A stretch of 64,000 nucleotides of DNA from an uncultured Acidobacteriota bacterium (GCA_963789965.1 CAWBMO010000006.1:402136-466135), one strand, 5' to 3'. Positions 5,431-11,752 are shown, numbered from the stretch's first letter. The notes: generated by a model not told the origin, from the letters alone. Numbers and translations are program-made.

Positions 5431-7419
5431 ATGCCGAAGATCACGACAGGCCGCGCCTATGCCAACAACGAAGTCGCGTACGTCGCCTGGGACACCGACG
5501 GCCAGATTGCGGGTTGCCTTGGCTTCGAGGTGACGCGCGTCTATCTCAACGCCGACGGCACTGTCGCGCGGCGGCCGGATGGCAGCGAAGACCGGGTGAG
5601 CTGTGCATCGTGGGTGGCGTTCAAGGGCCAGAAGAATCCGAACTGGCTGGCGCAGGACACCGGCGTGTGGCCGGTGCAAAAGATGTCATGGCGCGATCTC
5701 ACTCTGCGGAAGAAGCGCGACGGCGCGACTCGCCGGCCTGACGAGGTGCGGGTGCGGTTCGAGATCCGGCCCGTCGGCGACCTCAGGCCGGGGCTCGCGC
5801 CTGTGCCCTCGAACGGCCGCGAGTTCGCCGACGTCGTCAAGCGGGACAAAAAGAACAGGCCGGTGAAGGATGTGAACGGGAAGCCGGTGATGCAACGCGT
5901 TCGCGCGTACGAGGGCAAGCCGCGGCCGCTGGGCTACCTTGCACCCGCCGTCGCCACCAACGACGTCATGGTCACCTCCAGACGCAAGCCCTTCCGGTCA
6001 ACGTTCACCAATGGCATCCTGGCGGCTCAATGGCTCAGAAACGTGCTGCTCGAGGACGGAGTCATCACCCCGAACGAGCTACTCAACAAGATCTCGAATC
6101 CCAACGATCCGCACCGCAAGTACCTGGCGGGCGACGTGCTCCCGCTGATTCACGAGCTCTTCAGCCGGAAGGGCGAGTTCTATTTGGGCCTGTACGAGTT
6201 GGAAGACAAGGAGCTGGAGGACGTCCTCGTTGTCAACGCCGGGCGGGTCCACGTGATTCTGTCGAACTCGGGCGTCGACAGTGCCGGGGTCTGGGACCGT
6301 AGGAACGAGCCCGCGCGCAAGCGGCTGATGAAGGCCAAGGTGGACCTCCAGCACCGGATGTTCAACAACAGTACGCACATCGGGCACAACAAGTTCGTTG
6401 TGCATGTACCGCCGGCCGGCGGCCCTCGCGCCGTGTTGACCGGGAGTACGAACTGGACGCAGACCGGAGTCGCAGGGCAGACCAACAACGCAATCCTGGT
6501 CGAGGACGACGCGATCGCGGGGATGTTTCTCGAGTACTGGAAACGCATGAAGGCCGACAAGCTGAAGATGCCAAAGCCTCGCGGCGCAGCCATGATCGCG
6601 AATCAGCAGGGGGCCAAGTTCCGCACGTCCAACGTGGTGCCGTGCAAGTTCCAGCTGACGGGTGGAGTCGCGATCGAGCTCTGGTGCTCACCGAACACCC
6701 AGCAACAGAGGAAGCCGACCTCGACAACCAAGCCGACACCCGTCCCACCCGACCTGACCGAAGTCTATCGCCGAATGCGACTCGCGGAGGAAGCCATTCT
6801 GTTCCTAGCGTTCTACCCCGGCCAGGCTGGCAACGACTGCATCATCGGCGAAGCCATCGAGATCGGCCGCAAGGACAAGACGCTCCTAGTGAGCGGCGCC
6901 GTGTCGAGCCCGCAGGCCATGCCGGAGTACAAGGCGAGTAAGAAAGATCCAAGGACCAAAAAGGTCATCGAGAAGGGGAATTCACCCGTTACGTACGAAA
7001 GAGACAACGTAATGGTCGTACGTGCCGCGGCGATTGACGATCGCAACATCCTGGGGGACTTTGGCCTCGAGCAGCTCGCCGCCAAGAAAACCGGCGCGAT
7101 CATCCATGACAAACTGGTGGTCATCGATCCTCGCTCGGAGAACTGCTCGGTGATTCTCGGGAGCCACAATCTCGGTTTCAAGGCCTCGTACTCAAACGAC
7201 GAGAATTTCCTGATAATTTCCGGCCATCAGGAATTGGCCGCCGCGTACGCCGTCCACATTCTCGACGTCTACGAACACTACCGCTTTCGTGCGATCCAGA
7301 CCGAGCGGGCGCGACAGGGAAAGAAGAAATGGTCCGGGTACTTGGACGCCGACGATCGGTGGCAGAATGGGTACGTCGATCACTCCAAGGGGGCGATCGC
7401 CCGGTATTTCGCGCGCTAG
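5431..7419 (+). CDS. Phospholipase D-family protein with two HKD motifs and a ~300-aa unknown N-terminal region
   Basis: HKD motif 1 is HNKFVVH...GSTNWT and motif 2 is HDKLVVID...GSHNLG. GGAGG-like sequence (gaaggagggg) lies upstream of ATG 5431. Confidence 0.85.
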   Translation: MPKITTGRAYANNEVAYVAWDTDGQIAGCLGFEVTRVYLNADGTVARRPDGSEDRVSCASWVAFKGQKNPNWLAQDTGVWPVQKMSWRDLTLRKKRDGATRRPDEVRVRFEIRPVGDLRPGLAPVPSNGREFADVVKRDKKNRPVKDVNGKPVMQRVRAYEGKPRPLGYLAPAVATNDVMVTSRRKPFRSTFTNGILAAQWLRNVLLEDGVITPNELLNKISNPNDPHRKYLAGDVLPLIHELFSRKGEFYLGLYELEDKELEDVLVVNAGRVHVILSNSGVDSAGVWDRRNEPARKRLMKAKVDLQHRMFNNSTHIGHNKFVVHVPPAGGPRAVLTGSTNWTQTGVAGQTNNAILVEDDAIAGMFLEYWKRMKADKLKMPKPRGAAMIANQQGAKFRTSNVVPCKFQLTGGVAIELWCSPNTQQQRKPTSTTKPTPVPPDLTEVYRRMRLAEEAILFLAFYPGQAGNDCIIGEAIEIGRKDKTLLVSGAVSSPQAMPEYKASKKDPRTKKVIEKGNSPVTYERDNVMVVRAAAIDDRNILGDFGLEQLAAKKTGAIIHDKLVVIDPRSENCSVILGSHNLGFKASYSNDENFLIISGHQELAAAYAVHILDVYEHYRFRAIQTERARQGKKKWSGYLDADDRWQNGYVDHSKGAIARYFAR

Positions 7420-7536: not shown

Positions 7537-8223
7537 ATGGCTCTCGAGCATTGCACAGATTGCGGACACGAGGTCTCTTCGGAAGCGACGGGTTGTCCGA
7601 ATTGCGCTCGGCCGTGGAAGAAGATCCCAGTCGGTTGGAGGGCGGCATTTGGCCCCTTAGGGGCTTTCCTGGCGGTCGCGCTACCAATAGCGGCCACGAT
7701 TATTTCCCTGATTGTCGGTGTTATCGAGTATCGCAAAGCCCAGAGATGGAGGCGTACTGAGTTTGTAATAGCGCAGATGAAAGAATTCGAACAGCGACGC
7801 GACGTTCAGCTTGCCATGGCCATGCTGGACTGGAACGATAGGTCATACAAACTAGAAGGCGAGAGCGAGCCTGAAGTGAAAGTTACTGATGACACTCTTC
7901 TCGGCGCCTTGGTTCCTCATCCGAGTAAGCCTGACGGCAGGTTTAGCTCGACCGAGGCGCGAATCCGCGACATCTTCGATGCCTACTTCAGTGGTGTCGA
8001 CTACTTCGCTGCGATGGTAGAGGTAGGAGTGATAACAGTAGAAGATCTTAAGCCGTACGGGATCAAGTACTACCTTGACATAATCGGCAGACCCGGCAGG
8101 AAGCAACGGGCAGTCGTGGAAGAGATGTGGAAGTATCTGGAGTGTTATGAATTCACAGGCGTCCAGAGACTATTAAGGACCTATGGACATAATGTTGCCG
8201 TAAGTCCAATTCCGGGCTGCTGA
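7537..8223 (+). CDS. Zinc-ribbon / single-TM protein of unknown function
   Basis: N-terminal CTDCGH...CPNC four-Cys ribbon, then a hydrophobic helix (FLAVALPIAATIISLIVGVI). AAGGGGG lies upstream of the ATG. Visibly lower GC than its neighbours. Confidence 0.6.
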   Translation: MALEHCTDCGHEVSSEATGCPNCARPWKKIPVGWRAAFGPLGAFLAVALPIAATIISLIVGVIEYRKAQRWRRTEFVIAQMKEFEQRRDVQLAMAMLDWNDRSYKLEGESEPEVKVTDDTLLGALVPHPSKPDGRFSSTEARIRDIFDAYFSGVDYFAAMVEVGVITVEDLKPYGIKYYLDIIGRPGRKQRAVVEEMWKYLECYEFTGVQRLLRTYGHNVAVSPIPGC

Positions 8224-8356
8224 CACGGACTTTTCGTTTCTTCGTTCCGAGCCTGTTGCGCAAGAAGGTGCAGGCTGGCCGATGACACTTGACTTACAAA
8301 ATGTCAGCTCGATAATGATTCGGTGACATCGGAATATTCCACGCCTTTCTTGTCTC

Positions 8357-8458
8357 CTGTTAAAGATTGTTAAGGTCCACAAAAGTCAGTCGTTATTTAG
8401 TCAATACTATTTACTAAATGCCAGAACCATTTCCGAACCTTAACAATCCTCAACAGGT
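8357..8458. repeat. MITE-like nested inverted-repeat element, copy B1
   Basis: Outer IR is CCTGTTAAAGATTGTTAAGGT / ACCTTAACAATCCTCAACAGG. Inner palindrome is ATTTAGT-N11-ACTAAAT (8395-8419). About 80% identical by eye to 11644-11752. Confidence 0.7.
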
Positions 8459-8595
8459 TCGAAGTGAGTTTCTGCCGCCGCCGGTCATTACGCTCGTCGC
8501 GATTGCGATGCGAGAGGACTCGGCGAGCGGAGGCAAAAAGAGATAAGGATAACCCGGTCGTCGAGGAACAGACGAAGTGGGATGAAATCGGCAGT

Positions 8596-8699
8596 GCGCC
8601 TTTTGTCGGCTTTCGTGGATGAACCCCATGCACCGCGAAGGATTCACTTCTTTGGGACGGCGGCGCCCGCGTCGCGCGCTCGTGTGCATGGGTTCATCC
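8596..8699. repeat. Dispersed repeat family D (GGATGAACCCCATGCACCGCGA core), inverted pair
   Basis: GGATGAACCCCATGCACC at 8617-8634 and GTGCATGGGTTCATCC at 8684-8699. Related copies at 16994-17038 (reverse) and 23412-23481. Confidence 0.6.
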
Positions 8700-8779
8700 G
8701 TGACAACGCCCACAAACCCGTCGCGCGAGCTGAATACCGACTCGCAGAAAAACGGTAGAACCGCATATGATTTCGCCCG

Positions 8780-9121
8780 ATGGAAGACATCAATGTGTGT
8801 CCGATTTGCGGGCGGCATGCTGACGTGGCATCGGACGACACTCGTGCCTCTGCTTACAACGTCGAATGCAAGGTGTGTGGGCGGTATCTCGTCGGGGTTA
8901 CGTTCGTATTGGGCGTCAACCAGCGGACAGAACGGCCAGCGGATGCCCTGCTGGTGCGCTATCTCTCTGGCTATACACGAACGGCCAACGGCTCTGCGCA
9001 GATAGGCGGCGACAACTGGCGTGAACTGGCGCAAAAGCACAAAGACACGCCACCGGAAGAGAAGACGCGGAAGCTGTTGAAATATCTTCAAGGGAAGTCG
9101 TGTTCGCGACGCGGCCCCTGA
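8780..9121 (+). CDS. Small zinc-ribbon protein (113 aa), possibly truncated
   Basis: CPICG...CKVCG four-Cys ribbon at the N-terminus. Lower-GC region. A long Arg-rich antisense ORF (8450-9253) was judged spurious. Confidence 0.45.
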   Translation: MEDINVCPICGRHADVASDDTRASAYNVECKVCGRYLVGVTFVLGVNQRTERPADALLVRYLSGYTRTANGSAQIGGDNWRELAQKHKDTPPEEKTRKLLKYLQGKSCSRRGP

Positions 9122-9246
9122 AACCTTTGATGCAGCCATTTCAGATTGGCGACCACGTGCCGCCGGCCGCTGAGTATCAGCCAACGGCCGGCTGGACCTG
9201 CACGGTGTGCCGCCACTTCGAGCAGCTGCAGTAAGTTCAGAGCGTA

Positions 9247-10152
9247 ATGTCACAAGCCGTCTACGCCACTATTCGAGCGTTTCCTGCTATCGCTCAGGCT
9301 ACGGTTGTAGGTGCGCTGAGGACTCTCCTTCAAAGCAAGCACCTCTACCAGAGCGTCATGGCTGACATCGAGAAGATTCCTTACATAGGTGACGATAGGC
9401 CTGATGTCAACGGGCTCGTCACGAGAACCCGCCAAATCATTTCGGGACCGTGGATCGCTGTAGATCCCCAGGACAAACAACTCAAGGCGGCGGCCCAGGT
9501 GCAAGCGCACGCCTTTTTCTATCTGACGCCGCCGGACGTGAAGCTGTTCTGCACGACGTGCAACCGTGTCGAGGCGTTCAATGCGGTGTCGGCCGAGGAC
9601 TTCAGCGGCCGGGGATTGAGCGACGACAATAAAGGCCATTTGGTTGCCAGGCAAGTCGTTCAGATCTTCGCGTTCTCTTATTTATGCCAGTCGTGCAAAG
9701 AAGTGCCCGAGGTGTTTCTAGTTCGTCGGCAGGGTTCAAAACTCACGAACGTTGGTCGTTCGCCCATTGAGCATGTCGATGTGCCGCCGGACATCCCGAA
9801 ACATGTGATGCGATTCTTCGGCGGCGCTATAGTCGCCCACCAGTCGGGCCAGACGCTCGCAGGATTATTTCTGCTGAGAACATTGCTCGAACAGTTCGCC
9901 CGCGCGACGACGGACTCGAAGGCGACGAACGCCGATGAAGTCATGGAAGCGTATATGGCCACGCTGCCACCTGACTTCAGGAGTCGTTTTCCGTCGATGA
10001 GAGATCTCTATGGGGAATTGAGTGTGGATCTACACACCGCAACCGGATCGGCGGAATTGTTCGATAGTACGAGGGATAGAATTGCTCAACACTTCGAGGT
10101 CAGACGCATATATCGGCTGCCGGATCGCGCCGAGCCCGTGACGCAGGACTGA
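9247..10152 (+). CDS. Cys-rich hypothetical protein (301 aa)
   Basis: CTTCN...CQSCK four-Cys arrangement followed by a helical C-terminal region (FFGGAIVAHQSGQTLAGLFLLRTLLEQFAR) that resembles DUF4145-type domains. This is memory-based and weak. Confidence 0.5.
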   Translation: MSQAVYATIRAFPAIAQATVVGALRTLLQSKHLYQSVMADIEKIPYIGDDRPDVNGLVTRTRQIISGPWIAVDPQDKQLKAAAQVQAHAFFYLTPPDVKLFCTTCNRVEAFNAVSAEDFSGRGLSDDNKGHLVARQVVQIFAFSYLCQSCKEVPEVFLVRRQGSKLTNVGRSPIEHVDVPPDIPKHVMRFFGGAIVAHQSGQTLAGLFLLRTLLEQFARATTDSKATNADEVMEAYMATLPPDFRSRFPSMRDLYGELSVDLHTATGSAELFDSTRDRIAQHFEVRRIYRLPDRAEPVTQD

Positions 10153-11643: not shown

Positions 11644-11752
11644 ATGTTAAGAATTGTTAAGGTCCACGAAATGTCAGATCGCCATTTAGTCAATGCGATT
11701 TACTAAATTGAAAAGGGGACCATTTTTCTAAACCTTAACAATCCTTAACAGG
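11644..11752. repeat. MITE-like nested inverted-repeat element, copy B2
   Basis: Outer IR is ATGTTAAGAATTGTTAAGGT / ACCTTAACAATCCTTAACAGG. Inner palindrome is ATTTAGT-N11-ACTAAAT (11684-11708). Same orientation as B1. Confidence 0.7.

Follow-up and report, generated by a model that had tools for sequence, protein, structure and literature searches.

A low-GC patch of an Acidobacteriota genome with a remote relative of RAZR-type zinc-ribbon proteins, an apparent effector-gene remnant and an orphan gene

RAZR, the ring-activated zinc-finger RNase (PD-T7-4) of E. coli UMB1727, is a protein of about 25 kDa whose zinc-finger domain is variable and binds phage proteins that form rings; RNA is then cut non-specifically by the DUF4145 HEPN domain, with the residues R146 and H154, which brings about abortive infection, and a cryo-electron microscopy structure has been deposited as PDB 9y9c (PMC13017515). 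DUF4145 is a branch of the HEPN superfamily, and fusion to a zinc ribbon is among its listed architectures (Anantharaman et al. 2013, PMC3710099). The HEPN branches PaREP1 and c2405 keep the His without the Arg, and other conserved polar residues were argued to be able to substitute (PMC3710099). In the present work, a stretch of 64,000 nucleotides (nt) from an uncultured Acidobacteriota bacterium (GCA_963789965.1, CAWBMO010000006.1:402136-466135), called the window below, was analysed around positions 7537-10152, where three genes encode proteins with paired CxxC motifs. These genes were named A, B and C in their order along the DNA (Table 1). We hold it fairly probable that 7537-10152 is a horizontally acquired, compositionally foreign patch with three functionally independent genes, namely a RAZR-like C, a remnant B and an orphan A.

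Gene C and the RAZR-type proteins

The first-pass annotation of this stretch had described the third protein as resembling DUF4145, and the resemblance was upheld by profile-profile comparison despite the lack of detection by Pfam. A comparison set was assembled from 17 stand-alone DUF4145 proteins of 200-265 amino acids (aa) from the phylum. Two N-terminal CxxC pairs were present in 13 of these proteins and RxxGNxxxH in all 17, and the profile of the set matched RAZR (9y9c) over its full length with an E value of 2.4e-43. When compared with this set by hhalign, the C family in a diverse 42-sequence alignment scored 95.1% (E 3.3e-8, 227 columns) and the close-homologue alignment of C scored 87% (E 3.8e-6), against 1.8% for the control with reversed template; DUF4145 sequences taken one at a time gave no hhalign match to the C family. 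Both CxxC motifs and the "A..A...R..lE" helix (R211, E215) were paired in the alignment with the RAZR-type set. The catalytic Arg was aligned with R252 and the catalytic His with H263, and between these two positions C has a 3-residue insertion relative to DUF4145. The helical domain of C was also connected with DUF4145 via phrog_1305, which was matched by C itself and by 35 of the 59 C-family members (best E 4.7e-7); two proteins passing the Pfam DUF4145 cut-off matched phrog_1305 only, on its C-terminal half.

The AlphaFold2 model of C, built with 59 sequences, had a predicted local distance difference test (pLDDT) score of 91.5, and a separate model of the helical domain (residues 178-301) reached 93.9. 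The whole model consisted of a helix (3-30), a mixed alpha/beta part, a Cys4 beta-sheet domain (98-172) with the four cysteines placed in beta hairpins, and a six-helix domain (185-288). HEPN proteins were returned recurrently by Foldseek for both models (PaREP1 2q00, HepT, Csx1, YutE 1ylm, TM0613, AbiV and HEPN-MNT), and they made up about half of the top 50 matches of the helical domain. The best structural match of this domain was 2q00, a PaREP1-type HEPN protein of Sulfolobus (P95883), with a TM-score of 0.60-0.62, a root-mean-square deviation of 3.6 A over 118 columns, a probability of 0.99 and an E value of 0.25. It keeps the His without the Arg, as divergent members of the C family do; it differs from C in being archaeal and in having no zinc ribbon, and no sequence similarity to C was detected. 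It was concluded that C is a remote homologue, a distant sister, of the RAZR-type zinc-ribbon + DUF4145 proteins, and that it is like RAZR in architecture and probably in chemistry, without belonging to either the RAZR or the Pfam DUF4145 family. As in RAZR, a Cys4 zinc ribbon is followed by a DUF4145-type HEPN domain in a single-protein unit, and the gene is likewise solitary and patchy in distribution.

As deposited, C (P0001, 264 aa) begins at Met38 and is short of 37 codons (window 9247-9357). ATG 9247 was taken as the better start, because the homologues extend upstream, aligning from residue ~1-20 onward, and because the omitted part holds the invariant K31-H32-L33-Y34-Q35 motif. With this start, conservation by block was 0.74 for residues 23-36, 0.27 for 37-95, 0.65 for 96-180 and 0.70 for 181-290, and the insert 37-95 scored 0.23 in the divergent set of the family. 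A word-indexed search gave at least 555 clusters of C homologues at E <= 0.001. Among the 120 matches listed, nearly all were 260-320 aa long and 41-59% identical to C, with a few fragments of up to 78%, and none of the 120 carried any Pfam domain. In species-representative genomes, the family was found in Acidobacteria, Bipolaricaulota, Ignavibacteria, Thermodesulfobacteriota, Kuenenia, Nitrospirota, Chloroflexi, Latescibacterota, Verrucomicrobia, a Nanosynbacter, Bifidobacteriaceae, Betaproteobacteria and the cultured Variovorax sp. WS11. Its distribution was very patchy: C matched only one of 400 genomes sampled across the phylum, at 39% identity, and it was not found in 40 closer relatives.

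Several results weighed against the link between C and RAZR. No DUF4145 (PF13643) match was obtained for C in Pfam at E <= 0.1, nor for its 59 relatives even at E <= 1, and neither C nor any of these relatives was reached by another Pfam model or by NCBIfam. PADLOC, including PD-T7-4, gave no match for C and only stray PDC-S05 for the 59 relatives at E <= 0.1. When C-family profiles were searched against the PDB sequences, no relative was recovered and RAZR (9y9c) was not found directly at E <= 10, and the HEPN matches of Foldseek all had E >= 0.15 and were non-significant. C is also longer than RAZR, at 301 aa compared with 219; its N-terminus has some 95 additional residues, made up of the KHLYQ helix and the hypervariable insert, and its zinc-ribbon block is conserved, whereas this is the most variable part of RAZR. 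The active-site helix differs as well, since R252-DLYGELSVDL-H263 of C is Rx10H against Rx7H in DUF4145 (R146/H154 of RAZR; RxxGNxxxH), with LSxD in place of GNxA. The Arg itself is not invariant in the C family: R252 was Arg in 55 of 59 close homologues and in 17 of 40 divergent ones, in which K, G, S or Q otherwise stood at this position. RNase activity of C is thus not assured, because the Arg-His spacing differs and the majority of divergent homologues have another residue in place of R252.

RAZR-type genes of the ordinary kind, which encode zinc-ribbon + DUF4145 proteins of 200-265 aa with RxxGNxxxH, were common in the phylum (L114-L142). PF13643 was matched in 48 of 401 phylum genomes, and no match was found in the genus/family of the host (36 genomes searched). 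The genome-wide PF13643 search of the host gave no match at all and did not pick up C.

Eight annotated contexts of C homologues were examined, of which three featured restriction genes, transposases or integrase fragments, and toxin-type genes occurred in a further two. One homologue was located between IS91-type and IS1595-type transposases, and another followed an integrase fragment in a neighbourhood that also contained a type IIG restriction gene, PLD and MAD7. In a third locus (L005 4933-11625), the C homologue was preceded by a DUF5677 gene and followed by the gene of a 1482-aa Mrr_cat_2 + ResIII/helicase protein, and this arrangement is likely a defence island. Other homologues adjoined a BrnT-like pair, or were close to an RHS toxin and endonuclease VII, or to a PIN toxin with mnmA and pheT downstream, and one was found among central-metabolism genes. 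In five or six related Verrucomicrobia, a C-family gene was present between pheS and pheT on the same strand, with 3-4 nt from its stop to the start of pheT (L076-L081; e.g. L079 3910-9519, L081 3637-9152), so that the Phe-tRNA synthetase operon carries an insertion of an unusual kind. Neither these loci nor the metabolic one resemble a defence island. No neighbour of C was conserved across phyla among the loci compared, and a small partner gene in head-to-head orientation was kept only between genomes that are nearly identical. Relatives of C were not found in phage records, plasmids or IMG/VR viral contigs, which counts against the RAZR-like reading; in BFVD, two unnamed viral proteins had an overall build similar to that of C (E 8e-7 and 3e-4).

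C is the only one of the three genes whose function can be read with good support. The contexts fit a solitary, mobile conflict gene, and a course of action can be proposed for C by analogy with RAZR, which supplies the ideas of a trigger, of RNA cleavage and of a role in defence. C would be idle as an oligomer and would bind a phage-made protein via its zinc-ribbon side, for which the hypervariable insert 37-95 would be the likeliest specificity element. Binding would join two HEPN domains, so that R252 and H263, with Y255, S259 and H282, could form an RNase site. This site would cut cellular and phage RNA and halt the infection.

The same protein might instead be a zinc-ribbon/HEPN-fold protein with a role outside defence, in RNA or tRNA binding, in regulation, or in other chemistry by Y255, S259, H263, H282, R211 and E215. 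The position of the gene between pheS and pheT, where it is apparently translationally coupled to pheT, is in line with such a role, as are the proximity to mnmA and pheT in another lineage and the metabolic context. The catalytic Arg is not conserved family-wide, the best fold match belongs to a HEPN branch with His and without Arg, and the zinc-ribbon block is highly conserved and not diversifying. These points are met by the very patchy distribution of C, by the lack of any neighbour kept across phyla, by the frequent vicinity of transposase, integrase, restriction or toxin genes, by an insert of a hypervariability typical of conflict proteins, and by the homology to RAZR-type proteins. A non-defence role was regarded as unlikely for C, and the pheST-embedded lineage was the chief ground for retaining it at that level.

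Gene B and the sequence behind it

To collect the family of B, 1.84 billion representatives were searched exhaustively with HMMER at E <= 0.001; a word-indexed search with B had given almost nothing, and no close relative was found in JGI metagenomes. The family comprised 77 representatives with lengths from about 100 to 510 aa, and residues 5-107 of B aligned at or near the N-terminus in all of them. This N-terminal module of about 105 aa consists of a 4-Cys ribbon and helices, with the pattern CPxC...CxxCG...L.YLS..TR...NW..LA. In the longer members, the module is followed by a conserved middle domain, "RS..G..V....DYPLxDA...GW", and then by various C-terminal domains: Nuc_deoxyrib_tr in 9 members, TIR_2 in 5, TIR in 2, CAP12-PCTIR_TIR in 1 and GGDEF in 1, and also helix-turn-helix. 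In PADLOC, 12 members of the family matched TIR effector models and 3 matched PDC-S66 (best E 2.7e-58), with further matches to ThsB and other models. Two examples came from the phylum. The pair of module and DYPLxDA...GW domain has no Pfam model and heads at least 77 representative proteins (L032 886-1782, minus strand; L033 1489-2421, plus strand; P0125-P0200), and it is regarded as an unannotated, sensor-like domain pair.

The profile of the family (318 positions) matched B at positions 8-117 with an E value of 3e-41, and it gave no other match across the window or in the frames of 8700-9300. The middle and effector domains were absent from B, from the downstream frames and from the window, and tblastn of full-length B-family proteins against 8601-9400 recovered the N-terminal module only. 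P0201, a protein in the 90%-identity cluster of B, was identical to B at 97 of 107 positions up to Ser107. At this point P0201 reads GKSAFMGAKVDV like the family consensus, and B reads "GKSCSRRGP*"; directly after S107, P0201 has "AFMGAKVDV" and B has "CSRRGP" and then a stop. The last six codons of B matched nothing. As judged from these alignments, B appears to be the dead 5' remnant of a TIR- or deoxyribosyltransferase-type defence gene, with a breakpoint at about 9100. The middle winged-helix-like part and a C-terminal TIR or deoxyribosyltransferase-like effector would have been lost there. With the TIR/deoxyribosyltransferase-like single-protein candidates (PDC-S66, ThsB-like and the CBASS "Effector TIR"), B has the N-terminal module in common; it differs from them in being without the middle and effector domains, and B itself matched no PADLOC model.

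Two further proteins with parts of B were observed. Metagenomic P0124 (run SRR5437867) has residues 1-31 of B, at 90% identity, joined to a LuxR/sigma-70-r4-type C-terminus, which reflects either a further rearrangement of the gene or a chimera produced in assembly. The host genome encodes a paralogue of 166 aa (L016 1486-1986, minus strand; G000:C1:242148-242402), which consists of an unrelated 80-residue N-terminus and the B-type module, and then ends.

B could also be read as an intact short protein, a stand-alone ribbon module that serves perhaps as a decoy, a regulator or a Lar-like anti-restriction factor. Against the loss of its 3' part it can be said that many family representatives are only 100-140 aa long, which is compatible with a functional short form, that the 166-aa paralogue ends just after the same module, and that B is an open frame with an ATG start. 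These short representatives may, however, be contig-end fragments, and it is right after S107 that P0201, 91% identical up to there, departs from B and continues as the consensus, leaving the last six codons of B without any match. The ribbon of B has a weak similarity to Lar (PF14354/TIGR03655), with E values of 0.0011 in Pfam, 0.021 in NCBIfam and 0.0028 in PHROG. The matches are far under threshold (19.6 against 28.6 bits for PF14354 and 15.1 against 39.6 for TIGR03655) and only the ribbon aligns, so that the resemblance is generic to zinc ribbons. A functional short form was considered quite improbable, and it was kept in consideration because the 166-aa paralogue ends just after the module.

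In the first-pass annotation, a second open frame behind B had led to the suspicion that the middle gene was frameshifted. The frame exists and B appears not to be intact, but the alignments indicate that B is cut off at ~9100 and that the sequence which follows is unrelated. The frame overlaps B by 22 nt. Its GC content at third codon positions (GC3) is 0.80, unlike B and C, and its DNA is unique in the genome; the 147 nt from the breakpoint of B to C (9100-9246) have a host-like GC of 0.64, unlike the genes on either side. A single indel, real or an assembly error, could in principle have shifted the continuation of B into this frame. The overlap of the two frames is in keeping with this, and visual comparison shows "FDAA.S" in one frame, and in another "Y.PT.GW", both of which resemble motifs of the family. 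The repair by these motifs was rejected, because the family profile is silent in all frames past position 117 and the motifs lie 20-25 codons too close to each other. Relatives have ~200 codons where no more than 147 nt are available here, and the jump of GC3 to 0.80 also speaks against a common frame. The frameshift was accordingly rated as very improbable. The frame is probably not a gene and, as far as the profile and alignments can tell, not a continuation of B.

Gene A, the low-GC patch and the independence of the three genes

A consists of a zinc ribbon (C6xxC9...C20xxC23, residues 6-23), a hydrophobic segment of about 25 residues (~38-64) and a domain of about 160 residues, with the motifs YRKAQRW, MLDW and IRDxFD and the invariant residues W71, E75, D98, R144, Y178 and Y204. 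The sole close relative was P0122, which is 41% identical to A and encoded among membrane-protein and pyrroloquinoline quinone (PQQ)-dehydrogenase genes. The transmembrane (TM) segment with the MLDW domain was found in 13 metagenome loci and one genome locus, mostly without a ribbon. The ribbon was common only to A and P0122, and it is a lineage-specific addition to the "TM + MLDW" domain family. The contexts of A homologues varied by locus and included UbiD and Ku, metallo-hydrolases, an amidohydrolase and an effector with an Hsp70 substrate-binding domain (Hsp70-SBD). Only sub-threshold zinc-ribbon matches were obtained for A in Pfam and none in PADLOC, and nothing passed the threshold in NCBIfam or PHROGs. 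No relative was found in the PDB with the profile of the A family, nor with that of the B family, and no relation of A to B, C or DUF4145 was detected by hhalign. All that can be said of A from its sequence is that it appears to be a rare membrane-anchored accessory protein, with no detectable link to defence.

In one locus (L104 1184-3015), an A-family gene was followed, 15 nt on, by the gene of a 412-aa protein in which an Hsp70 substrate-binding domain (PF00012, E 6e-30) precedes a deoxyribosyltransferase/TIR-like end. The A-family gene and this Hsp70-SBD effector could be a candidate two-gene conflict module.

The three open reading frames with their CxxC pairs all lie on the plus strand, where the first-pass annotation had placed them, and the DNA is AT-richer than its surroundings, as had been noted. 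The GC content of 7537-10152 was 0.549 against a mean of 0.632 for the window, and only 3 of 614 sliding windows of 2.6 kb were equally GC-poor, all of them overlapping this stretch. GC3 was 0.58 in A, 0.65 in B and 0.65 in C, which is 0.06-0.25 lower than the 0.71-0.83 of the neighbouring genes. Foreign origin was concluded from the lowest GC of the window, the low GC3 and the absence of C from the 40 relatives, in agreement with the accessory nature that had been assumed. The borders of the island could not be set by synteny, because the upstream PLD gene, whose presence was confirmed, and the alpha/beta hydrolase had no orthologues in five genomes of the same genus/family.

Two repeat elements had been reported from the island, and both were found in the 556-nt gap between A and B (Table 1). 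The arms of the palindrome, which resembles a miniature inverted-repeat transposable element (MITE), are 82% complementary, and one further copy (80% identical) is present in the genome at ~11645-11752 of the window. The copies of the short dispersed repeat were 34-48 nt long with 84-100% identity, and all were located on contig C6 at 382-419 kb. No RNA family of Rfam was found anywhere in the window, and matches to promoter and terminator consensus sequences did not exceed the chance level in the scans.

Table 1. Genes, parts of the C protein and intergenic elements in and beside the low-GC patch, with positions counted from the first nucleotide of the window
Feature	Position	Strand	Description
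PLD-family gene	5431-7419	+	Two HKD; PLDc_2 E 2.4e-15; GC3 0.83; upstream, outside the low-GC patch
Gene A	7537-8223	+	228 aa; 4-Cys ribbon, membrane segment, C-terminal domain
MITE-like palindrome between A and B	8356-8457	strandless	~100 nt; 28-nt arms 8356-8383 and 8430-8457
Short dispersed intergenic repeat ("D-family" of the first-pass annotation)	~8598-8645	strandless	About ten genome copies
Gene B	8780-9121	+	113 aa; ribbon C7xxC10...C30xxC33
Open frame behind B	9100-9234	+	44 codons, ending ...GWTCTVCRHFEQLQ; same frame as C, parted from it by TAA 9232-9234
Gene C	9247-10152	+	301 aa; C102xxC105...C147xxC150, then helical domain
C residues 1-36	9247-9354	+	N-terminal helix ending in KHLYQ; H32, Y34, Q35 invariant; helix 3-30 pLDDT 83-97
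C residues 37-95	9355-9531	+	Hypervariable alpha/beta insert; mean column conservation 0.27
C residues 96-180	9532-9786	+	Beta-sheet domain with 4-Cys zinc ribbon; C102, C105, C147, C150 invariant or nearly so
C residues 185-288	9799-10110	+	DUF4145/HEPN-like helical domain; R211, E215, Y255, S259, H263, H282 invariant; R252 present

Whether the three genes belong together was judged on the 400 phylum genomes, on 40 C-homologue loci from species-representative genomes, with neighbours checked within 6 kb, and on the 13 A-homologue metagenome loci. The globular domain of A matched one phylum genome at 27% identity, the other matches of A being to ribbon + TM only, and the B module matched three, weakly. 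Two of the three genes were neighbours in none of the 400 genomes. An A homologue or a B-type module was present at none of the 40 C loci, and C or a B-type module at none of the 13 A loci. The families of A, B and C were unrelated to each other in hhalign profile comparison.

The idea of a single locus or system, as put forward in the first-pass annotation, thus did not hold, as no pair was found side by side in any locus examined; the homologues are nevertheless not confined to housekeeping contexts. A three-component accessory or anti-phage system, in which the ribbon proteins would sense and the TM protein would act as effector, could draw on the adjacency of A, B and C on one strand, on their low GC and on the 4-Cys ribbon in each. 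It could further draw on the A homologue 15 nt upstream of a deoxyribosyltransferase-like effector gene, the effector type of the B family, and on one C homologue with a gene of this type directly downstream. Such single cases out of 7-40 loci are as expected from shared residence in variable regions. Considering also that A and B are parted by 556 nt with two repeat elements and that B appears truncated, the one-system reading is largely refuted and hardly tenable. An anti-phage flavour of the stretch was retained in part, since the B and C families have relatives of anti-phage type and A has no detectable link to defence.

Two protein families outside the domain libraries

The locus itself is ordinary and not novel: within a variable patch, one accessory gene is live, another is a remnant and the third is an orphan. 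What is new is two protein families outside the public domain libraries, the C family and the B module. In addition, one deposited gene start was corrected, by which 37 codons with an invariant motif were restored to C. The B module marks TIR and deoxyribosyltransferase-like effectors that share an unnamed N-terminal domain, and a model of it could improve the annotation of defence genes.

The C family is large and confidently foldable, and it is present in many environmental phyla and in one cultured Variovorax. As a tentative suggestion, for which the odds are less than even, it may be a distinct, widespread and undescribed group of one-protein abortive-infection RNases that sense phage proteins via the insert instead of the ribbon and have their own mode of assembly, and the B-type module may separately be an undescribed sensor domain of TIR, deoxyribosyltransferase-like and GGDEF effectors. 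The C family would extend immunity by single proteins of the RAZR type to a sister group in which the active-site helix is rearranged and another region is the variable one, and it bears on the reach of the ring-activated HEPN principle and on its tolerance of a change in Arg-His spacing.

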